A DNA stretch of 64,000 bases from Botryllus schlosseri (Eukaryota): NCBI GenBank assembly GCA_051294905.1, contig CM119373.1, positions 2,482,001-2,546,000 on the forward strand, given 5' to 3'. The position numbers and the translations under genes are program-made. The stretch's first letter is position 1. The number at the start of each line of letters is the position of its first letter. The notes beneath the pieces were generated by a model that was given only the letters and a program-made list of their open reading frames with translations, searched no databases and was not told the DNA's origin. Positions 1 to 54,919 of the stretch are shown in pieces.

Positions 1-1902
1 GGATTAAGCAGTGCGTGCGACAGACGGTGATTCGAATATCAACAATAGTCGCGTTCGCAAACTAACACTTCAAAAAGATGTGAAATATTTGTAAAATCCT
101 ACGATCGCTCACAAGATACCACTTCCGGCAAATCGATCTATCACTCAATACACAACCGAAGTTGAATTGTAATTGAATGCGTAAATTTATCACCTCGACA
201 TCAAAATTCGAAAACAACAACTTGACGCTTTATGTTCTCACTCTAATTTCATGATAAGTGTAATAAGTGCCGAATAACAGATACATCACCGGCGAGACTT
301 GAATACCAACAAATTGTCACTTATTTCTATTCTAGCCGTAATCCTTTGTGAAGTTAACGCTTATTCAAAAAGGTGTGAAATAGTTTGCAAAACCCCGCGA
401 TCACTGACAAGATAATGTCTCGGACATACCCATCTTTCGCGACTTGGTGTCATAGCCATACCGATCGCTCACGCGGTGAAATTTTAGTAATCAGTTTGTC
501 ACAGAACTAGATTTCACTGGTAAGATTTAATAAATACCGACTATCAGAACCATCAGTGTGGGTAACTTGAATAGCAACAAATTGTCACTTATTTCCGACG
601 AGAAATTCACTAAACCGCAGTACATTGTGTGATTTTGAAAAACAGATGTTTGCGCTTGCGTTTTGATATGTGCGACCCACTAACTACATCCGTTTTGCGA
701 ACACGGCTTGTTGTGAGGATTACGCGCGCGCCCTATATTTCGAATGACCTGCGCGCTGAAGTGCGAAATAGTTTGCTAAATCTAGTAATCAGTCGCAAGG
801 TGTTACTTTAGTAATTAGTTTACCATAGAACCGGCGTAGCCGGTGATTCGAATACCGACAAATTTTCACTTATTTCTGACCCAACCCTAATCCTCTGTGA
901 AGTTGACGCTTATTCAAAAAGGTGTGAAATAATTGTAAAATCCTAATCCGAAACCGATTATTTTGACTTTGGCGTAGTGTGCATTGAAATAGGATTGACA
1001 AACATGACTAGCAACTTCCCCACAGTCCCGTTTCGATATTATACACACATTGATTTGAAACAAGTAATGTAACATTACAACTCTATTCCCGATCCAGCTT
1101 TCCGTTTGTCAAAGAGACATTTTAACATCTTACCATACTCAAAAGAATTATTCACAACATTAACAAGTGTTTAAAATCTAGTTTTCACTTACTTGGCTAT
1201 ATCAGTACAACTCGCAAACTTGAATTAATTCATCTGGTTGTATTCATAGGACCGATAATTTTTATCCAACTGTAAAGGTCGTTATACTATTCTGTAAGAC
1301 AGAGTATTTACTAATCGGTGCATATACGATTTGACTTGGTCATATTATATTTTGAGTATACGAGATTTGAGTGTCAGAACAATAACTGAGAATTAAATTA
1401 TCACAATTGAATCCATATACGACAGCGTGAATTAAATTATCACAATTGAATCCATATACGACAGCGTAAAAGATATTGGGATGTCAGCATCTCTTTACGG
1501 TTATAGTTACAACCACATTACCTAATTTACCCGACCAACTCGTCATGATCATTCCCGAAATCAACACAAACATGACTACTGACTTGAGTCAACCACAAAA
1601 CAGCATCAAGTTTTAAATCCACTTGTAGCTTACGGCTTATTTGAATGCGGGTTATGTTTTGTTGTAATTGAGTGTACGGAAATAGTATTACGTCTCGACA
1701 TCTCACCATCTTACCATACTCAAAGAGTCAACCACGAAAACATTGTCAAGTAAATCCGTTTGTAACTTACCCAACCAACTCAAACAGTATCAGTATGAAA
1801 AACAGCCAAACATACACGAATCCATACAATCACTAAAACCTAAAATCCATAACAAGCTTGGTTGTATTCATATCCCTACACATCTTTTTTTATTCAGCTT
1901 CA
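1..1902 (+). repeat. Left arm of long near-perfect inverted repeat (pairs with 7207-9108); runs off the window start
   Basis: Position x pairs with 9109-x; mirrored ORFs 629..811/8298..8480 and 1527..1709/7400..7582; one mismatch noticed (358 vs 8751). Confidence 0.97.
1390..1467 (+). repeat. Perfect 39-bp tandem duplication (mirrored at 7642-7719)
   Basis: gaattaaattatcacaattgaatccatatacgacagcgt x2. Confidence 0.95.
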
Positions 1903-4469
1903 AAAGTCGTTACTATTCTGTAAGATAGAGGAATTACTACGCGGTATATTCTGCAAGACAAACTAATTACTACTCGGTATATTTTGTAAGACAAAAGTAA
2001 TTACTTCTCAGTGTCGGCGACTTGAGATTAACATAATATGTTTGAGTATACGAGATTTGAAAGTCCGACCAACGTAGTTGAGAATTCATTTCTTACAATC
2101 GAACAACGGTGTTATATTCAAAGTTATCATGCTGTGAACATAAGATTGACACATTGATTTGACATATGAGATTTGTAATAGTTGATCATTACTTTATTAT
2201 TAAATTATTTGCGTTAATTAGACCCGGCGTTATGGTAAATGTTATGACAGCAACAAACTTTTCAGTACCAATGTTATTAACACATTAAGCTGTAAAACTA
2301 TGTATGTCTGAAATGTTCTTGATAGGAAAATTACTCCACCTTGGTAAAAATCACTCTGCGTATTGCGGATATCAGAAAATATTTCCAGTACCCAAGACTA
2401 AAGATGAAACGACAATTTCGTTTGCTGATTAACAACCGGTACAATACTTTATCATCATAATCCGCGGTGAGAATTGAAACACTTTCGCGCATTACCCGGT
2501 GTCAAGATATCACACTAGGTGAATTGACATACCGCCGCTTGAATAATACCTAATCCGTTCGCACCATTTCACATACTTTGATCATTACAAAAGTAAATTG
2601 TGATATGTTTGTTAGATGCATTCAATTCAACTAGAAGTGTCTGGTACACAACAATCGTAATATCGAAAAAGTACTTGCCACACTGTTATTTGCTAAACGT
2701 GTTTTGCATTGTTGTTCATTTGTAGTATTGATTGTTTTTGAACCCCCAAATCATAATTCCCGACATGAAACCAAGCCGCTGAAAGTCGTTACCATCACGA
2801 AGATACAATGTGCACGATGATTGTCAAATGTGTCCTACCTGGCCAACAGAAAACAATTTTCACTCACTCGAAATGAAACCAATGTGATGGTCTCCATTCG
2901 ATATTTTGTTTGTGTCAAATATACTTTGCAATGAACACATTTGCGTGGTTGAGCTTTGCCATCATCAAGCTGTCATTTGTATCGTTTAATTAACCGACAT
3001 TTAGCGATTGGTGAACATACCGAACGATACACAGTCACTTCGAAATACTCCGTTGATCGTAATTTCCATCATCATAATAATCGAAGTACAATTGCTTCGA
3101 ATCGCTAGAGTGGTTGAGCTTTACATCATCAGACTGCCATCTGTACATCAAGAATACATCCACCTTGTAACTGGGTCGTTTACCTAACCGAGTTGTATGC
3201 ACAGTTTGATATTTAGCGATTGCAGAACATACCATTTCGAAATACTGCGTTGATCTCAATTCCTTTGTCGTGATAATCGAAGTATATTTGTTTCGATTTC
3301 ATAAAAACCAACTTTTCTATGACATGATAAATTTTTGAAAAGTTATACTTAGAAGGTTGGTGCATATCGCGAAAAATAATATACCACCCATATTGATATT
3401 GCTACTCCATTGATCGGTATTTTCACGCGAGTCGATTTTCAAATGAGTAAAATTTATTACATGAGTTTCTCCGCTTAATGTAAATGAAAACTCAGTCGTC
3501 TTTTAACATCACAAAGACATTGATAAAAAGTAAGCAATCAAACACAACACTTTGTACGACACTAGTTATTGTTCCACACATCTCATTTCATACTAAGTGT
3601 TTACGAAAGATATTCATGATGCACGAAAATATTCGCTCATGCTACAAACCTGTAGAATGATTGGTGGTGCAAGGCCAGCACAATTGTGGTATCCATCCGA
3701 GTTTAGTTAACACAAATTTATTACAACAGAGCCACGTAAACTTTCGTGAAAGAAAAGCATACTCACTTTCAGAGGGTTATGTCAATGCCATAGCAGTAAA
3801 TCAAAAATATTCCTAACCCTTTGCACACCGGTGACAAATCATACAACAAACATTTTTTGTGAGTCGAATTGTTGTTCAGTGTCAAGTCTACCTGTTGAAA
3901 AGTGCATTAAAACAACACAGTCACAATTCAATTAAAACCACGAATCTATTTTCATTTCGTCACATACAGAAAAATAAATTTTCTTTCCCCAACACATACT
4001 TGTAACCAATCGCTTTCATTAAACACACAACTCCATAAAAGTATTTACTTTCTACAACATAGACATTCCGATGTAGTCAAGAAATATTAAAACGGACACG
4101 ACACGACTGAATGTAAGGGGATAGAAGTCTATCGCATCGATTTACATGTGGTCTTCGCTACGGCTTCAAAAAACGCATCATCTATTTTGCATTGGTCGAG
4201 ACCGAGCGAGCCAGTTACATGTATTCGCGGTAATGATTTTTCTTGTCATATGCGAATGATAGGTTTACTACTCCGACAAATCAAATCAACAAACAACAAC
4301 AATCTTCTGACGATCATAATAGCAATTTCATTTGCCACCCCTTCGTAATTGTACACGCACGAAAAGTATATTGTACAACTCGGCAACTACGTTTAACAAG
4401 ACCAATCACACTACCAGCGTTGAACGCAAGATACCTACCCAAGTCAAAAATATCATACGGGTTTGGACA

Positions 4470-4791
4470 ACTGACGTTTACCTGTGTAAAATTATCATTT
4501 TCACTTGGCGATCTATCCTTTCCTAGAGTAACAAACCCTTGTCGTTTACAAATCTATTTTTTTTTCCTACAACAAAAAACTATTTTCACTTGGAAAAATA
4601 CTTTTACCTAGAGTAACTAATCATTTTCTTTTAAAAATATATTTTCTCCCTGGGTAACAAACCCTTTTCGTTTGGAAAACTATCATTTACCTGAGTACCA
4701 ATACCGTTTTCACTTGGCAGTCCGTCGTTTACCTGGCTAAACATATCATTTTCACTTGGAAATCTATTTTTTCCCAGAGTAAGAAACCTTT
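4470..4791. repeat. Degenerate ~42-bp tandem repeat, about 8 copies
   Basis: cct(a/g)gagtaac-like motif near 4480, 4522, 4607, 4649, 4690, 4732, 4773; recurring ttttcacttgg. Confidence 0.8.
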
Positions 4792-4869
4792 TTCACATCC
4801 TTGCGTGCAGGGTGAGGGTGAGACAAGGGGAATCCCCCAAAACATACCGTTTCGTGGTCAACATATTTA

Positions 4870-5637
4870 TTATAAAGAGGCGTTACAAAATTTACAATCA
4901 CCACCCTCATAATTGCAATAACCATTTTCTTTGACAAACATATCATGATAACGTGAAGATCTTAAATATTTGGCATACTCTCTAACCAACATATCATTAA
5001 TAATTTCATCAGCAATCATAGGATAACCATTATTTTTTAAAAATTCAGCAGTTTTACGAGTACTATAATTATGGACACAAGGTACTTTATGAGAGTGTCT
5101 AACATGCTTGTGTACTCTACCACCAATTTTACGAGGCCGTTGAGCCCTAATACCTTGGATATAAATAACAACACGCAAATAATGCAAAAATGATGTAATC
5201 TTTTTACGCCTACCCCACCCTTTACCACAATTACGCCAAACAGTCGAGGAATTTTTACTCTCAAGACTGATATAATGGCCGTGATCAATCTCAATATCAT
5301 CATCATAACAACACTCACACCAATGATCATTGACTGGTACAATATGTTTTTTTACTCCATCCTCTTTTTCTTTGGTATAGATGACATGATAAGCGTGATT
5401 AGCCTTGATGACCTTTTTAATAGTGTCATAGTGCCGACAAGTCTCAAGGATGAGTCCTTGTATTTGGCTGTCTTGATCTTTATCCTCATTAACGTAACCC
5501 CAATCTAGTATAGGTAATTTGCCCTCGGCAGCTTTGGGTTTATTTGGTCCCTTTAAACATTTTTTAATATGGCGAGCAATACCAGATTTGTTGATCTCTT
5601 TAACGCAGTGAGGGCACGATACTTTTGTAATCTTCAT
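4870..5637 (-). CDS. 255-aa intronless protein: N-terminal C2HC zinc finger, candidate HUH endonuclease motifs, Cys-rich C-terminus
   Basis: ATG at 5637 (MKITKVSCPHC); C-x2-C-x11-H-x3-C; DHGHYIS; candidate catalytic Tyr in LHYLRVVIYIQ or EYAKYL; C-x6-C-x2-C; TATA upstream and AATAAA at the stop. Function inferred from motifs only. Confidence 0.7.
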   Translation of the reverse strand: MKITKVSCPHCVKEINKSGIARHIKKCLKGPNKPKAAEGKLPILDWGYVNEDKDQDSQIQGLILETCRHYDTIKKVIKANHAYHVIYTKEKEDGVKKHIVPVNDHWCECCYDDDIEIDHGHYISLESKNSSTVWRNCGKGWGRRKKITSFLHYLRVVIYIQGIRAQRPRKIGGRVHKHVRHSHKVPCVHNYSTRKTAEFLKNNGYPMIADEIINDMLVREYAKYLRSSRYHDMFVKENGYCNYEGGDCKFCNASL

Positions 5638-5689
5638 GATGTTCACCCTTTGACAATCTTTTTGGCAATGACAAATGATTGCAAATCAC

Positions 5690-5706
5690 CCTCCTTATAT
5701 ACTTTT
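5690..5706 (-). promoter_or_regulatory. TATA box of the 255-aa ORF, in the unique spacer of the inner palindrome
   Basis: Minus strand aaaaGTATATAAGGagg about 60 bp upstream of the ATG. Confidence 0.55.
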
Positions 5707-5773
5707 TGAGTTTTTTTTTTTATTAAAATAATTAACAAATTACGCATCCAATGAAACAATACAGGCAGAGAGG

Positions 5774-6523
5774 TCGTGCCCTCACTGCGTTAAAGAGATC
5801 AACAAATCTGGTATTGCTCGCCATATTAAAAAATGTTTAAAGGGACCAAATAAACCCAAAGCTGCCGAGGGCAAATTACCTATACTAGATTGGGGTTACG
5901 TTAATGAGGATAAAGATCAAGACAGCCAAATACAAGGACTCATCCTTGAGACTTGTCGGCACTATGACACTATTAAAAAGGTCATCAAGGCTAATCACGC
6001 TTATCATGTCATCTATACCAAAGAAAAAGAGGATGGAGTAAAAAAACATATTGTACCAGTCAATGATCATTGGTGTGAGTGTTGTTATGATGATGATATT
6101 GAGATTGATCACGGCCATTATATCAGTCTTGAGAGTAAAAATTCCTCGACTGTTTGGCGTAATTGTGGTAAAGGGTGGGGTAGGCGTAAAAAGATTACAT
6201 CATTTTTGCATTATTTGCGTGTTGTTATTTATATCCAAGGTATTAGGGCTCAACGGCCTCGTAAAATTGGTGGTAGAGTACACAAGCATGTTAGACACTC
6301 TCATAAAGTACCTTGTGTCCATAATTATAGTACTCGTAAAACTGCTGAATTTTTAAAAAATAATGGTTATCCTATGATTGCTGATGAAATTATTAATGAT
6401 ATGTTGGTTAGAGAGTATGCCAAATATTTAAGATCTTCACGTTATCATGATATGTTTGTCAAAGAAAATGGTTATTGCAATTATGAGGGTGGTGATTGTA
6501 AATTTTGTAACGCCTCTTTATAA
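5774..6523 (+). pseudogene. 5'-truncated inverted copy of the 255-aa ORF (starts at SCPHC, no ATG or TATA)
   Basis: Revcomp of 4870-5619; in-frame TAA at 5729-5731 with no in-frame ATG before the copy. Confidence 0.8.
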
Positions 6524-6568
6524 TAAATATGTTGACCACGAAACGGTATGTTTTGGGGGATTCCCCTT

Positions 6569-7210
6569 GTCTCACCCTCACCCTGCACGCAAGGATGTGA
6601 ACGCTTATTCAAAAGGGCGTCATATATTATTTTAAAATCCGACGACCACTCACCGGATAATGCTTCACATCCTTGCGTGCAGGGTGAGGGTGAGACGTCA
6701 CCTCATCAACGATCACTATACTTACAAGGCACCGGTTGAGCGATAGGGCGTGTTTTTGGGGATTCCCCCTTGTCTCACCCTCACCCTGCACGCAAGGATG
6801 TGAACGCTTATTCAAAAGGGCGTCATATATTATTTTAAAATCCGACGACCACTCACCGGATAATGCTTCACATCCTTGCGTGCAGGGTGAGGGTGAGACG
6901 TCACCTCATCAACGATCACTATACTTACAAGGCACCGGTTGAGCGATAGGGCGTGTTTTTGGGGATTCCCCCTTGTCTCACCCTCACCCTGCACGCAAGG
7001 ATGTGAAGCATTATCCGGTGAGTGGTCGTCGGATTTTAAAATAATATATGACGCCCTTTTGAATAAGCGTTCACATCCTTGCGTGCAGGGTGAGGGTGAG
7101 ACGTCACCTCATCAACGATCACTATACTTACAAGGCACCGGTTGAGCGATAGGGCGTGTTTTTGGGGATTCCCCCTTGTCTCACCCTCACCCTGCACGCA
7201 AGGATGTGAA
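6569..7210. repeat. 203-bp tandem array of hairpins (33-bp perfect stem, 62-bp loop, 75-bp linker); 3 full units plus one half stem; third loop inverted
   Basis: Stem gtctcaccctcaccctgcacgcaaggatgtgaa at 6569, 6772, 6975, 7178 and its revcomp at 6664, 6867, 7070; loop 7008-7069 is the revcomp of loops 6602-6663 and 6805-6866. Confidence 0.95.
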
Positions 7211-9108
7211 GCTGAATAAAAAAAGATGTGTAGGGATATGAATACAACCAAGCTTGTTATGGATTTTAGGTTTTAGTGATTGTATGGATTCGTGTATGTT
7301 TGGCTGTTTTTCATACTGATACTGTTTGAGTTGGTTGGGTAAGTTACAAACGGATTTACTTGACAATGTTTTCGTGGTTGACTCTTTGAGTATGGTAAGA
7401 TGGTGAGATGTCGAGACGTAATACTATTTCCGTACACTCAATTACAACAAAACATAACCCGCATTCAAATAAGCCGTAAGCTACAAGTGGATTTAAAACT
7501 TGATGCTGTTTTGTGGTTGACTCAAGTCAGTAGTCATGTTTGTGTTGATTTCGGGAATGATCATGACGAGTTGGTCGGGTAAATTAGGTAATGTGGTTGT
7601 AACTATAACCGTAAAGAGATGCTGACATCCCAATATCTTTTACGCTGTCGTATATGGATTCAATTGTGATAATTTAATTCACGCTGTCGTATATGGATTC
7701 AATTGTGATAATTTAATTCTCAGTTATTGTTCTGACACTCAAATCTCGTATACTCAAAATATAATATGACCAAGTCAAATCGTATATGCACCGATTAGTA
7801 AATACTCTGTCTTACAGAATAGTATAACGACCTTTACAGTTGGATAAAAATTATCGGTCCTATGAATACAACCAGATGAATTAATTCAAGTTTGCGAGTT
7901 GTACTGATATAGCCAAGTAAGTGAAAACTAGATTTTAAACACTTGTTAATGTTGTGAATAATTCTTTTGAGTATGGTAAGATGTTAAAATGTCTCTTTGA
8001 CAAACGGAAAGCTGGATCGGGAATAGAGTTGTAATGTTACATTACTTGTTTCAAATCAATGTGTGTATAATATCGAAACGGGACTGTGGGGAAGTTGCTA
8101 GTCATGTTTGTCAATCCTATTTCAATGCACACTACGCCAAAGTCAAAATAATCGGTTTCGGATTAGGATTTTACAATTATTTCACACCTTTTTGAATAAG
8201 CGTCAACTTCACAGAGGATTAGGGTTGGGTCAGAAATAAGTGAAAATTTGTCGGTATTCGAATCACCGGCTACGCCGGTTCTATGGTAAACTAATTACTA
8301 AAGTAACACCTTGCGACTGATTACTAGATTTAGCAAACTATTTCGCACTTCAGCGCGCAGGTCATTCGAAATATAGGGCGCGCGCGTAATCCTCACAACA
8401 AGCCGTGTTCGCAAAACGGATGTAGTTAGTGGGTCGCACATATCAAAACGCAAGCGCAAACATCTGTTTTTCAAAATCACACAATGTACTGCGGTTTAGT
8501 GAATTTCTCGTCGGAAATAAGTGACAATTTGTTGCTATTCAAGTTACCCACACTGATGGTTCTGATAGTCGGTATTTATTAAATCTTACCAGTGAAATCT
8601 AGTTCTGTGACAAACTGATTACTAAAATTTCACCGCGTGAGCGATCGGTATGGCTATGACACCAAGTCGCGAAAGATGGGTATGTCCGAGACATTATCTT
8701 GTCAGTGATCGCGGGGTTTTGCAAACTATTTCACACCTTTTTGAATAAGCATTAACTTCACAAAGGATTACGGCTAGAATAGAAATAAGTGACAATTTGT
8801 TGGTATTCAAGTCTCGCCGGTGATGTATCTGTTATTCGGCACTTATTACACTTATCATGAAATTAGAGTGAGAACATAAAGCGTCAAGTTGTTGTTTTCG
8901 AATTTTGATGTCGAGGTGATAAATTTACGCATTCAATTACAATTCAACTTCGGTTGTGTATTGAGTGATAGATCGATTTGCCGGAAGTGGTATCTTGTGA
9001 GCGATCGTAGGATTTTACAAATATTTCACATCTTTTTGAAGTGTTAGTTTGCGAACGCGACTATTGTTGATATTCGAATCACCGTCTGTCGCACGCACTG
9101 CTTAATCC
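7207..9108 (-). repeat. Right arm of long inverted repeat (reverse complement of 1-1902)
   Basis: tgaagctgaata at 7207 is the revcomp of 1891-1902; tgcttaatcc ending at 9108 is the revcomp of 1-10. Confidence 0.97.
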
Positions 9109-9167
9109 TCACAACAAGCCACGTTTCCGTTTGCGCGGTTATTGTTGGTGACTCGTACATATTCAAC

Positions 9168-9548
9168 ACCGCGCGAGAGATGCCTATACCGAAAAGGGTT
9201 ACCGTGTGAGAGGCTCCATAAGACACAACGGCACCGTGCGAGAGATGCCTATACTTGAAAGTACGACTCACCAACACGAGTTTTCGAGGCACCGTGTGAG
9301 AGATGCCTATACCGAAAAGGGTTACCGTGTGAGAGGTTCCATAAGACACAATGACACCATGCGAGAGATGCCTATACTCGAAAGTACGACTCACCAACAC
9401 GAGTTTTCGAGGCACCGTGTGAGAGATGCCTATACCGAAAAGGGTTACCGTGTGAGAGGCTCCATAAGACACAATGGCACCGTGCGAGAGATAGGGGGGG
9501 TCAAAAGGGTCACCGTGCCAACACGAGTTTCGAGGCACCGTGCGAGCG
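9168..9548. repeat. 123-bp GC-rich tandem repeat, about 3 copies, built of ~30-bp subunits ending ccgtg(t/c)gagag
   Basis: atgcctataccgaaaaggg at 9180, 9303, 9426. Confidence 0.92.
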
Positions 9549-9596
9549 GGCCCATAAGAACCCCACGCTAGTTCGCGACCGATCGTATATACTACT

Positions 9597-9842
9597 TACT
9601 TTGAACTGAGAAGCACCACGAACTCAGTTCTCTGTACCGCCCGAAGGGCTCACATTCCGGCTTTTGACAGTCTATGAGTGCGTAATTACGACTGCTTCTC
9701 GCAACTACTTACTTACTTGCTTACTTGAGTAGATTTTAGCGTCGCTACCTCTACTTCTACCTGAAGTAGTTTTAGGATGCTCTTAGAAGGACTACTTCTA
9801 CTCGTACTTGAGTAGCGTTCTTGACTACTTAGACCACATCTG
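9597..9842 (-). mobile_element. One end of a MITE of the 21749-23021 family
   Basis: Revcomp cagatgtggtctaagtagtcaagaacgctactcaagt matches cagaggtggtgaaagtagtcaagaaagctactcaagt; similarity continues to about 9630. Confidence 0.75.
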
Positions 9843-18521: not shown

Positions 18522-19207
18522 CCTATACCCCAAACAATGCTGGACCAGTATATGACAAAGTCACTGAAATGCCACCTTCCAAGGCGAACGCACCATGTAT
18601 CGACGTTGGAAAACTAGTAAGGTTTACGTAGTACCAGGAATCATTGTCGCTGTGAATTTTGAATGGATCGGATCAGTCATTGCAATTTTATGTAATTCTA
18701 CTACAATAATTAATTCCTATCCCATGAAATCGAGTCTATACCCGAAATGTACTTGTACACTTGTACTAAACACAAGTATTAGTATGGTGATCATTTAGCT
18801 AGTGTTCGTGAATGCTGTACGCCACTACTATGCCGGATTTAGTCTGAAACCAGATGTGTTTTAAAACACTCTGTTCAGCACATGTTTAAAAAATCAATAC
18901 GCAATTGGTCGTATCGCTACATACGGAACATGCAATACAAGGCTACGCCCGTTTGTGGAAATGGCAACGTTGTTATAAATTACGAGATTTGCGGAATTGA
19001 TACTGTATACTTTGTGGTCGCGTTACAGGTACATATTTTGACTTTCCGCATCATTTATGCTGTTATGACGTTGTAATGAAATGATACTGGAATACTCCAA
19101 TTGACTCGAAGCCCTATACTCGATTCAGACTCATAATCACTCAAGCATACTCGATTTTGCTCAGTCTAATTATAATCCACTGGTAGCATGTATCGAATCA
19201 AAAATAC

Positions 19208-19785
19208 CTGGTGATATTGGTCTTCACGAAGGCTGGGTTGACTGAATTCACGCGAACGCCTTTCGGCGCGCACTCGCGAGCCACGCATTTGGTGAATTGA
19301 TCCACTGCCGCCTTGGTCATGCTGTACAGAAGCACGCCTTCAAACGCCTGCAGCCCGGCAATGCTCGAAACGTTCACAATATTTCCTTTCGACGCCACTA
19401 AATGCGGCATAGCCTTCTGAGTCAACACGAACAACGACTTCACATTAACCGTGAAAAGCATATCAAAATCTTCAATAGGTGAAGTTTGTAGACTGCCCAG
19501 TTTGTAAGCGCCCGCATTGTTGATGAGTATATCGAGCCGCTTATACTTTTCAACAATCTTATCCACCAAATTTTCAACCTCCTGTTGGTTTGTGAAATCC
19601 GCGAGTATTTGAAGGACATCTGCGGCACAGTTGTTCCGGCATTTTAATTCTGTTGCGTTCAATTCGTCCTTGTCTCTACCTGTAATGGCTAATATCGCGC
19701 CATGCTTTGCGAAATCTTGTGCTACTTCGCGACCGATACCGCTTGACGCGCCGGTTACTAACACAACCTTACCGGAGAAACTCAT
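19208..19785 (-). CDS. SDR gene A exon 1: classical short-chain dehydrogenase/reductase (FabG/glucose dehydrogenase-like)
   Basis: TGASSGIG, NNAG, NVSS, YSMTK, GVRVNSVNP; donor cag|gtattt; 578 + 190 nt = 256 codons including stop. Confidence 0.92.
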
Positions 19786-42225: not shown

Positions 42226-43849
42226 CAGGGGTGAGCAACGTACGGCCCCGCGGCCGGATCCGGTCAGCGACGGGATATTGAGCGGCCGGCAGGGAGTTTA
42301 CACCCTGAAAATGAAATTCTAATCGGAAAGTATTGGCAAATTTTATGCAAAGAATGAGTGCCAGTTTGCCGACCTGAGAAAGATGATCATGAAAATACTT
42401 GTTCTGTCTACATACATTTGCGAGCAAACATTTCCGACCATGAACAATAACAAGACAAGGCTATGTTCCAATATAACTGATGTTCATGTGCACTGTGCAG
42501 GCTTTACACGGATGTGTGATTGACCTCAACCGCTATCGTAGCAGGCCTACATATCAGTTTAACAAATTCACTGAATACTGTTTTTGGTCTCTTTGCTGTA
42601 AACCTGAAGTTTACATTAAATGCGATTTATTCCTTGCATATGTGGATAAATATGCGATTTATGTATCAATTATGTAATCTGGTCCGCCAAGTGCTTCATG
42701 TTCCGTTTTAGTGATGTTTATTCAAATATGTACATAAAATATCAAAAATTTCATAAAGAAAATCTTTCCCCATCATCGGGTCATCTCGTCTCAGCCGTTG
42801 CCGAAGTCGGATTTGTATTCCCGGTCGTAGTAGACGCCTTCGAAGGTTGGCGCTCGTAGTCGCTCGGCTCATCTCATCTCAGCAGTCGATGTCGATTCGC
42901 GGTCTCGGTCGTAGTATAGGAGCCGCCAGAACTTGGCGCTCGTTTACGTGTGTTTTTCATATATATTTGGTGGAGCGGTGGTGGGTGGGGTATGAATGGG
43001 GTAGGGGGGCGGTGGATAGGGTTGGTCGGGGTAGGGTTTAGTGGTTTAGGGGTGGGGTAAAGTGGGATGGATGGGAGGTTTGGGGGTTGGGATGGGTTGT
43101 AGGTGGATTGGTTGGTTTTTGTGGGTCGATAAATACAATACGATTTATCGCGCGAGCGTTTAATGGGCTCGCCTAAATTAATCTGTATATTTTACTTCTT
43201 ATATCGTTGATGCGTTCGTCAATATTTTGGGCGTATTCATTTTGTATGTCGAGTGCATTTTTCCATTCCCACACAAGGGTTTTCACGTTCATAAAAGCTT
43301 GTATTATAGTCGGAGCTTGCGGTCCGTCGTAGACGTTGCGTATGATCTCGTCGGGTGTAGCGTCAATAGTCGTTTGCAGGTCGTTCTCGAGATCCTGTAT
43401 TACAAGAGAGAACAGTTTTTTGTAAGTTGCACATTCGGCGAAAGTGTGACGCAGAGTGTCTTCGGCGTGTTGGCAGAATTTGCATTTGTTTTTCAAGTAG
43501 GCGTCTTTTCGTCGTACCAAGCCTGCGTTGGTTTTTCTGGAGCCTGTAAAGTAGCTCTCAGTGTTAATGCGATACGAAATCTCACGTTTCTTGTTGTCAA
43601 TGTGATCTTTGATATTGGGCTGGTATAGCCATATCTCTTTCCAGTCCGCCATGCGGCTTCCTCCTTGTTGCGTCTTCGTTTTAACAAGGATCTGGTACAT
43701 TTCTTTCTGGCTTAGTTCTTGTATATCTTGTGATTGGCTTTTAATTACGTCGAAGATTTTCTTTTCCTTCTTCCATTCCCCCGTCAATGTATTTCTGTGA
43801 GGGTAGAGGTTGTTCCCGGCCCGCCGACCGGAGAAGTTGCCCGTCCCTG
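42226..43849 (+). mobile_element. hAT Charlie/SPIN-like derivative interrupted by a LINE fragment
   Basis: caggggtgagcaac ... gttgcccgtccctg; remnant STYICEQTFPTMNNNKTRLCSNITD near 42406-42485; shorter copy at the equivalent site 53922-54177. Confidence 0.8.
42705..43810 (-). mobile_element. 5'-truncated L1/Tx1-like non-LTR retrotransposon (ORF2 C-terminus 43173-43787 plus 3' UTR)
   Basis: zf-RVT-like WKEIW...CKFCQHAEDTLRHTFAEC; AATAAA near the 3' end; TSD tgttcc. Confidence 0.8.
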
Positions 43850-44014
43850 TTCTACATCAGTCATGCTGTTGTGACGTTGTAATGAGTGATACAATAGAAA
43901 ACTCATGTTGAATCGATGCCCGATACTCTATTGAGATTTAGAATCACTCAGGCACACTCGATGTTGCCCAACCCTTATTATAATCCACTGGTAGCAGTAT
44001 CCCATCATAAATAC

Positions 44015-44592
44015 CTGGTGATATTGGTCTTCACGAATGCTGGGTTGACTGAATTCACACGGACGCCTTTCGGCGCGCACTCACGAGCCACGCATTTGGT
44101 GAATTGATCCACTGCCGCCTTGGTCATGCTGTACAGCAGCAATCCTTCTAACGCTTGTAGCCCGGCAATGCTCGAAACGTTCACAACATTCCCTTTGGAC
44201 GCTACCAAATGCGGCATAGCTTTCTGAGTCAACACGAACAGCGACTTCACATTAACCGAGAAAAGCATATCAAAATCTTCAACGGTCGAAGTTTGTAGAT
44301 CGCCCAGTTTGCAAGCTCCTGCATTGTTGATGAGTATATCGAGCCGTTTATACTTTTCAACAACCTTATCGACCACACTTTCAACCTCCTGTTGGTTTGT
44401 GAAATCCGCGAGTATTTGAAGGACATCTGCGGCACAGTTGTTACGACATTTCAATTCTGTTGAGTTCAATTGGTCCTTGTCTCTACCTGTAATAGCTAAT
44501 ATCGCGCCATGCTTCGCGAAATCTTTTGCTACTTCACGACCGATACCGCTTGACGCGCCAGTCACCAACACAACCTTGCCGGAGAAACTTAT
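44015..44592 (-). pseudogene. SDR pseudogene C exon 1 (open frame but ATG mutated to ATA)
   Basis: Very similar to SDR-A/D exon 1; ATA at 44590-44592 with in-frame TAA just upstream; donor cag|gtattt intact. Confidence 0.8.
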
Positions 44593-54177: not shown

Positions 54178-54341
54178 TTATACATCAGTGACGCTGTTAT
54201 GACGTTGTAATGAGTGATACTAGAATACTCAATTTGAATCCAAGTCCGATACTCTATTCAGATTTAGAATCACTCAGGCATACTCGATGTTGCCTAACCC
54301 TTATTATAATTCACTGGTAGCATGTATCCAATCATAAATAC

Positions 54342-54919
54342 CTGCTGATGTTGGTCTTCACGAGAGCTGGGTTGAGTGAATTCACACGGACGCCTTTCGG
54401 TGCGCACTCACGAGCCACGCATTTGGTGAATTGATCCACTGCCGCCTTCGTCATACTGTACAGCAGCAACCTGTCGAACGCTTGCAGCCCGGCGATGCTC
54501 GAAACGTTCACAACATTCCCTTTCGACGCCACCAAATGCGGCATAGCTTTCTGAGTCAACACGAACAGCGACTTCACATTAACCGAGAAAAGCATATCAA
54601 AATCTTCAACGGTCGAAGTTTGTAGATCGCCCAGTTTGCAAGCTCCTGCATTGTTGATGAGTATATCGAGCCGTTTATACTTTTCAACAACCTTATCCAC
54701 CACCCTTTCAACCTCTTCTTGGCTTGTGAAATCCGCGAGTATTTGCAGGACATCTGCGGCACCGTTGTTACGACATTTCAATTCTGTTGAGTTCAATTCG
54801 TTCTTGTTTCTACCCGTAATAGCTAATATCGCGCCATGCATCGCGAAATCTTGCGCTACTTCACGACCGATACCGCTTGACGCGCCAGTCACTAACACAA
54901 CCTTTCCGGAGAAACTCAT
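54342..54919 (-). CDS. SDR gene D exon 1: classical short-chain dehydrogenase/reductase
   Basis: ATG 54919; TGASSGIG, NNAG, YSMTK; donor cag|gtattt; 578 nt as in the paralogs. Confidence 0.9.

Follow-up and report, generated by a model that had tools for sequence, protein, structure and literature searches.

In the account of Craig (2023, PMC10288648), the HUH transposons described from eukaryotes form two groups only, Helitrons and Replitrons. Replitrons, reported there from algae, non-seed plants and protists, encode a single-tyrosine, Rep-type HUH protein without a helicase and insert in a fixed orientation after a short motif, with target duplications of variable length in Replitron-1. 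They are distinguished by the motifs HUQ and GYxxK, by a further conserved domain and by terminal repeats that are short and direct (PMC10288648). The bacterial elements IS91, IS801 and IS1294 are likewise HUH elements without a helicase; they use a target containing TTC, which is GTTC for IS801 and IS1294, and transpose one-ended, and IS91 is described with a Y2 Rep, distinct ori and ter ends and no target duplication (bioRxiv 10.1101/2025.01.24.634351). RAYT is a Y1 HUH gene, described as a single-copy host gene, located beside non-autonomous hairpin doublets of inverted repeats (REPINs) that also form tandem arrays (PMC3116915). Mavericks are described with AGT-type ends, a 6-bp target duplication and long terminal inverted repeats (PMC8097293).

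We analyzed a locus in Botryllus schlosseri; the window is the whole stretch of 64,000 nucleotides under analysis. It contains a multicopy gene for a 255-aa protein within a hairpin element with 30-bp ends, termed R, and this element is itself inserted in a Maverick-ended element. We read the protein as a predicted HUH endonuclease that is likely the transposase of the hairpin element, whose R ends were found only in Maverick-ended satellites, and we give this reading a probability of roughly 0.64. The link between the protein and R rests on their co-occurrence. For a wider reading the odds are about even: that the element stands for an independent, fifth group of HUH transposons and for the first one in animals to lack a helicase, one-ended, hairpin-forming and joined after TTC, which would use the single strands of Maverick replication, capture host pieces of 45-68 bp into flip-flopping arrays and truncate its hosts into shorter palindromes. 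It would then be a parasite of the satellite of a virus-like element, with relatives among unnamed metagenome proteins and possibly in large DNA viruses. No prior description of such an element was found in the literature searched, Repbase, Dfam and subscription journals being outside the search. If the reading is true, the element adds a third eukaryotic HUH group, in an animal, and extends transposon classification by a new motif set (HxH, YIQ and an invariant motif-I histidine) and two independently joined ends; the protein, small at 255 aa, would be a candidate enzyme for joining ssDNA and would have a target of three letters.

The gene and its predicted HUH domain

The gene was first noticed as an open reading frame for 255 aa with a TATA box and a polyA signal. 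All three were confirmed, the coding strand having TATATAA at 5701-5695 and AATAAA at 4871-4866. The features of the gene are as follows.

4866..4871, minus strand: putative AATAAA signal, overlapping the stop codon
4870..5637, minus strand: intact gene, 255 aa, with an N-terminal C2HC zinc finger, a predicted Rep-type HUH domain (about residues 78-185) and C-terminal helices
5155..5163, minus strand: Y159-I-Q161 on predicted helix 3; invariant tyrosine, predicted to be catalytic
5275..5283, minus strand: H119-G-H121 (HUH motif II), placed on predicted strand 3; two invariant histidines around a variable residue
5386..5388, minus strand: H84, invariant, at the motif I position of predicted strand 1; candidate third metal ligand
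5557..5616, minus strand: C2HC zinc finger, residues C8-C27, Sgf11/RAD18-UBZ-like, below the curated cut-off
5695..5701, minus strand: putative TATA box TATATAA, 58 bases upstream of the ATG

The original prediction regarded the protein as an orphan. We found 19 matches to it in the genome (tblastn; 495.5 Mb, 219 contigs) and eight credible relatives elsewhere. Gene copies at 91-100% identity were located at five loci, and contig C9 carries a relic with 31% identity and an internal stop. The gene together with an R end was also present in contigs from four other studies. The dN/dS ratio was 0.31-0.38 between diverged subfamilies (five non-independent pairs; Fisher p 0.0004-0.006) and 0.49, not significant, for the close pair C3-C17. 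The substitution pattern indicates that the open reading frame is a real gene under purifying selection. Reads on the reading frame were counted in four runs: X22 had zero reads anywhere, X24 had zero on the reading frame and X23 about one. Parts of the frame were covered in run X17, the RNA nature of which is a guess; these counts speak neither for nor against expression.

No helicase or other Pfam domain was found above the cut-off, in agreement with the helicase having been called absent. Searches of Pfam, PHROGs, NCBIfam and PDB sequences were uninformative, the best result being a sub-threshold Sgf11-like finger at residues 4-29. The C2HC finger that had been proposed is thus matched over these residues, but below the Pfam cut-off; it is retained in eight of ten lineages, and its last ligand is variable in one. 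The other motifs quoted for the protein, including HWCECC and C-x6-C-x2-C, are present in the sequence, and the C-terminal part contains a putative H/C/CxxC metal site. Word-indexed homolog searches, tblastn against phages and plasmids, and a comparison of viral contigs with three single proteins were also uninformative. The best scores in the ESM Atlas, 0.88 and 0.87, were taken as leads only. A weak match at contig C1:745 kb was not confirmed by the family profile and was set aside.

A profile search of 1.84 billion representatives gave nine matches. One of these, P0004, was discarded as spurious, being a tandem repeat protein; the eight relatives kept come from Logan or ENA, are unnamed and sit on short contigs, with a full-length form for one. 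Over ten lineages with 19-35% identity, residues H84, C109, H119, H121, Y159 and Q161 are invariant, a conservation that is partly selected for, as the relatives were retrieved with a profile containing the same residues. Both the two histidines of DHGHYIS, proposed as HUH motif 2, and the tyrosine of LHYLRVVIYIQ, proposed as motif 3, were therefore borne out in all ten lineages. The residue between the two histidines is G, G, K, I, I, E, H, E, E and I, hydrophobic in three of the ten and Gly in the window protein, and a bulky hydrophobic residue is not the rule at this position. At Y+3 four of ten lineages have K or R and the window protein has Gly, next to the invariant Gln at +2. The HUQ and GYxxK motifs of Replitrons were not found, HxH and xYxQ being present throughout the ten lineages, and the Replitron Pfam models PF21859 and PF21860 had no match in the protein, its genome copies or its relatives. 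EYAKYL had been put forward as a second tyrosine candidate of the pC194 type. It reads EYTKYL, EHAKYL or EKRDLR in genome copies, varies even between copies of 91% identity and is missing from distant relatives; the ExAKY motif of pC194-type Reps (Rep_1) is not a feature of this family. Candidate assignments to tyrosine recombinases, GIY-YIG nucleases and His-Cys homing endonucleases were rejected since the required residues are unconserved in the alignment.

An AF2 model built on a 15-row alignment had a mean pLDDT of 82.7, compared to 33.7 for AlphaFold from the single sequence. The model has predicted strands at residues 82-88, 101-111, 119-125, 142-146 and 176-179 and helices at 89-98, 130-137 and 150-161. 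The order over residues 82-179 is strand-helix-strand-strand-helix-strand-helix-strand, which corresponds to a Rep core of five strands and three helices. As described in PMC10288648, strand 1 of a Rep carries motif I, strand 3 carries motif II and helix 3 carries the tyrosine. The order in the model matches this description and hence suggests a Rep-type HUH topology with the motifs on the expected elements, the motif II histidines being on strand 3 (119-125) and Y159 on helix 3 (150-161).

Structural comparison gave HUH Reps the top ranks at low scores. In the VIA ranking HUH Rep domains made up seven of the top eight chains, with Z of 3.8-5.2, and all matches had Z below 8. SIRV1 ORF119 was first (Z 5.2, rmsd 3.7, 95 residues aligned), eEF1B-gamma was second (Z 4.6), and many lower rows were unrelated beta-alpha-beta folds. 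Foldseek against PDB ranked PCV2 Rep first at E 0.08 and had no match at E<=0.001. The two top matches in the viral structure library BFVD were uncharacterised Glossina hytrovirus proteins (E 4.5e-5 and 1.2e-4); named viral matches were mostly CRESS Reps, parvovirus NS1 and microvirus Reps. Taking topology, ranking and conserved residues together, a Rep-type HUH fold is highly probable, with no single match proving it. The protein is likely a helicase-less, single-tyrosine HUH nuclease with Y159 as the catalytic residue. The BFVD matches A0A0Y0JE62, A0A0Y0KBN0 and B0YLT5 suggest that HUH relatives may have gone unrecognised among the uncharacterised proteins of hytrosaviruses; we found no paper on an HUH nature of these Glossina hytrovirus proteins.

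The HUH proteins of SIRV1, CRESS viruses, parvoviruses and mriyaviruses share the predicted core fold, and the mriyavirus protein is also described with SIRV1 ORF119 as its best structural match and with no fused helicase mentioned (PMC11253617). These viral proteins are described as initiators of virus genome replication with a Yx2-3K motif (PMC11253617), whereas the protein studied here had no sequence match to them and is encoded in a 1.8-kb non-viral cassette. RAYT (4er8) was a weak fold match with Z 3.7. Unlike RAYT, the protein has a fold closer to Reps than to TnpA, its gene has a putative eukaryotic promoter, and no match to Y1_Tnp (PF01797) was found in protein searches; the genome search with this model had none of these loci among its listed matches and recovered 6 of 14 control genomes. 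Weak repeated Y1_Tnp matches (E 2.5-4.2, with stops) were seen at C1:7.27 Mb and C14:17.6 Mb (L086-L089), two of which pass the cut-off only when neighbours are summed, and are probably a tandem-repeat effect.

The protein could instead be cargo with a Rep fold, binding DNA or acting as an accessory protein without nuclease activity, and the R ends could be moved by a DDE transposase or tyrosine recombinase encoded elsewhere. The non-canonical motifs would fit this, polyomavirus T-antigen origin-binding domains are among the fold matches, and DDE elements typically have perfect terminal inverted repeats. However, HxH and the tyrosine are kept at Rep-like spacing (35 and 40 aa) at 19-35% identity, the alignment holds no conserved R-H-R-Y set of a tyrosine recombinase, and the pattern of a DDE enzyme, both ends at a single site and a duplication of fixed length, is not observed here. 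We consider this explanation improbable. Library searches gave no match to a non-nuclease family. An accessory gene of Polintons is expected in autonomous Polintons, and in this genome no gene copy was found in one.

Among the distant relatives only L090 comes with DNA context (2141 bp). Upstream of it lie a TATA box and a CCAAT motif, and it adjoins a gene of 18-aa cysteine-rich repeats (L090:1-264, minus strand) that Pfam did not name and that we take to be giant-virus-like. No convincing R-like end or fold-back was found at L090, where, in one of four tests, 7 of 300 shuffles reached the best score, or at the C9 relic, which has no host-element DNA around it. The hairpin life style is therefore shown for the family in this genome only.

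A hairpin cassette within Maverick-ended hosts

The locus consists of a host element, a gene-bearing cassette and an array.

1..4794, plus strand: left arm of the host, beginning 487 bp before the window; from -88 onward 99% identical to an R-free member
4792..4824, plus strand: left junction, host TTC (4792-4794) followed by the 30-bp R end starting ACATCC
4795..6598, no strand assigned: fold-back cassette of 1804 bp that bears the gene, composed of R, gene, 154-nt loop, inverted partial gene and inverted R
5771..6523, plus strand: codons 6-255 in inverted form, lacking a start codon; a short microhomology marks the joint with the upstream region, presumably made by snap-back
6599..7207, no strand assigned: array of three 68-nt host-derived spacers (GAA...TTC; the third flipped) alternating with three minis
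6667-6801, 6870-7004 and 7073-7207: hairpin minis, R-core-R', 135 bp each
7208..9596, minus strand: right arm of the host, mirror of -487 to about 1901, ending CTACT
9597..9602, plus strand: 6-bp host target-site duplication; the other copy precedes -487

The outer element has AGTAG ends and was found to be 10,083 bp, and not 9.6 kb as first estimated. Its sequence around the gene had been described as decayed repeats. On the contrary, identity between the outer arms is 99.96% over 2390 bp, and that between the inner arms, those of the cassette, is 100% over 828 bp. Nor is the gene the only long frame in the element, as had been thought: the inverted partial gene is identical to the intact copy over codons 6-255, with no in-frame ATG. 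The original prediction also assigned the gene to the outer element. No gene copy was present in eight R-free host copies, and the gene therefore belongs to a separate element, the 1.8-kb hairpin element, inserted in a gene-less host. Every near-identical gene copy in this genome is bounded by R and lies within this gene-less host family.

The host shares its ends, the 6-bp duplication and long inverted repeats with Maverick/Polinton elements as these are described (PMC8097293). It differs by lacking Maverick genes and by being almost wholly palindromic. AGT-type ends with a 6-bp duplication were found in all eight outer hosts whose both ends were checked, among 11, and no polB, integrase or capsid gene was present in the ORF lists of the window element or of eight fetched members. 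Related elements of 12-18 kb are near-perfect palindromes. A 15-nt internal host marker occurred 740 times in forward and 749 times in reverse orientation, compared to 4 and 2 for the control; from this we estimate a host family of about 745 elements, or about 2% of the genome at 13-14 kb each. The host is presumed to be a non-autonomous satellite. An open frame of 144-153 aa was seen near the centre in four of the eight fetched R-free hosts. In the C8 host copy a frame of 989 aa fills the loop; we take it to be endonuclease/reverse-transcriptase-like and probably a LINE insertion.

Using a relaxed pattern on the whole genome, we found 97 R ends at 11 loci and no match for the control. The 30-bp ends are inverted in 48 of 48 two-ended units, and all 11 loci are flanked by host-family DNA, one locus being judged on partial flank output and one flank on C15 having a further 320-bp repeat. 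A preference for a Polinton-like element is also described for Ngaro retrotransposons in virophage EMALEs, 91% of type 1 Ngaros being inserted in this way (PMC8547959). Ngaros are tyrosine-recombinase retrotransposons, whereas the element studied here is a DNA element with an HUH-type protein and is confined to its host at 11 of 11 loci.

The mini folds as a strong DNA hairpin (z -9.5) because its ends are inverted, single R ends having z of 0.1 and 0.3. The partial gene is joined at three different points with differing microhomologies in C3/C17, C6 and C15, and a further opposite-strand joint, in one low-depth contig of another study, is a possible fourth. Host fragments flanked by GAA and TTC make up the spacers, which measure 45, 60, 67 or 68 nt. 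Both orientations of spacers and of cores are represented in the arrays, the 60-nt spacer being listed in one only. The spacer in the window is closer to another host subfamily than to its own arm, and arrays thus likely travel as units. The core of the mini at 6697-6771 contains a stretch resembling host terminal repeats in short alignments, so that host-end DNA may have been captured in the minis.

Long-read sequencing is known to produce near-perfect inverted repeats as an artefact, and the palindromes and arrays could come from fold-back chimeric reads during library preparation or assembly. The several near-identical units at the C17 locus would be in line with this, and copy number inside single arrays could be wrong. 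The eight outer elements tested nevertheless have different left and right flanks sharing the 6-bp duplication, and the junction sites differ among loci. Moreover, a contig of another study repeats the spacer-R-gene junction of C17, and this, together with the gene contigs in four studies, argues that the element is not peculiar to this assembly. An artefact is therefore very improbable. The C17 host itself (C17:526937-552798, 25.9 kb) contains four gene cassettes and several arrays as nested palindromes with a clean 6-bp duplication, and directly beside it is another, separate inverted repeat that spans at least 4.7 kb.

Junctions after TTC and their possible origin

The 97 R ends reduce to 34 distinct flanks, 31 of which have TTC directly before ACA; the background frequency of TTC among host positions is 2.0%. 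For 29 flanks the fetched loci include an unoccupied site, which reads TTC in 27, TGC in one (with TGC also at the junction) and ACC in one. Junctions lie after TTC in 29 of the 31 resolved cases (three were unresolved), and the flanks are not all independent events. On sequence alone, the letters may belong to the target, to the element or to both. Two positions before TTC the 34 flanks have T 20 times, C 9 times and G 5 times but no A, a possible extension of the target motif. The other two resolved flanks are those of the C16 spacer, whose 60 nt, GAA and TTC included, recur at 100% identity in other genomic copies; many of these copies form inverted pairs spaced by about 11 kb.

Only rarely do both ends of a unit derive from a single host site, and each was joined independently. 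They give a 47-bp direct duplication bounded by GAA and TTC in C12, delete about 290 bp of host in C6 and produce mirror arms of 4.7 and 7.3 kb in C13 and C10. In the window element the insertion replaces the host centre.

One-ended joining at a target containing TTC is thus found here as in IS91 and ISCR elements. Compared to IS91, the element has a single tyrosine, the same R at both ends, no preference for G before TTC and long, variable duplications; the identical inverted ends, 47-bp duplication and 45-68-nt spacers take the place of distinct ori and ter ends without duplication. It differs from Replitrons in its HxH, YIQ and invariant motif-I histidine, its zinc fingers, its inverted 30-bp hairpin ends in place of short direct repeats, the lack of a Pfam match above cut-off, its confinement to another mobile element and its presence in an animal. 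Helitrons have a Y2 Rep with an SF1B helicase and insert at AT or TT, in contrast to one tyrosine, 255 aa and TTC in this case. In contrast to RAYT as described (PMC3116915), the gene itself moves and the spacers are captured host-element DNA.

These junctions might arise as follows. Maverick-type replication is protein-primed and displaces single strands. Copying of the Maverick satellite by protein-primed strand displacement would expose long single strands; as a helicase-less HUH enzyme needs ssDNA and the satellite would supply it, this would explain the host specificity. The enzyme would nick its own end at TTC^ACATCC and hold the 5' end via Y159, and a second subunit would cut the target strand after TTC, the 3'-OH of which would be joined to R. 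In HUH chemistry the donor 5' end is joined to a target 3'-OH, and the polarity of the junctions fits, a polarity that on sequence alone is compatible with another enzyme too. The enzyme would probably work as a multimer, as Y1 HUH enzymes generally do (PMC10288648). Two ends joined to separate TTC sites on opposite strands is the pattern seen at the loci, and such separate sites result in a deletion, a duplication of 45-68 bp or a mirror arm, with no fixed target duplication. Since one R end would suffice for transfer, fold-back copies with R at both ends would be favoured. Fold-back or template switching at inverted R could flip cores and spacers and build the arrays, and the same fold-back could regenerate the palindromic host arms. 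The whole molecule would then likely be inserted by a borrowed Maverick integrase, with the 6-bp duplication.

The protein could also be an HUH protein that initiates replication of a small satellite replicon of the rolling-hairpin kind, like a parvovirus or rudivirus, with R as the origin and with junctions formed by nicking and polymerase template switching onto co-replicating Maverick DNA. AAV integration involves such nicking plus template switching. The best structural matches (SIRV1, CRESS, parvovirus) are replication initiators, segments flip-flop between inverted ends and form head-to-head concatemers, the top viral-library matches are uncharacterised proteins of a large dsDNA virus, and L090 adjoins the presumably giant-virus-like repeat gene. 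Pure template switching would, however, more likely give ragged joints, and the R junctions are base-exact at TTC in 29 of 31 while only the internal fold-back joints use variable microhomologies; the element also has no capsid or helicase gene. We regard a replicon as unlikely.

For an HUH transposase, the confinement to Maverick-ended elements would provide a handle on an old question, whether animal Mavericks replicate extrachromosomally via displaced single strands; that extrachromosomal phase would have left the junctions and mirror arms as fossils.

Elsewhere in the window, three paralogous exons, which we take to be short-chain dehydrogenase-like and part of the ordinary host neighbourhood, lie in tandem at 19198-19785, 44005-44268 and 54332-54919, all on the minus strand. 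A frame of 175 aa at 43173-43700 on the minus strand presumably resembles the C-terminal part of a non-LTR retrotransposon protein.
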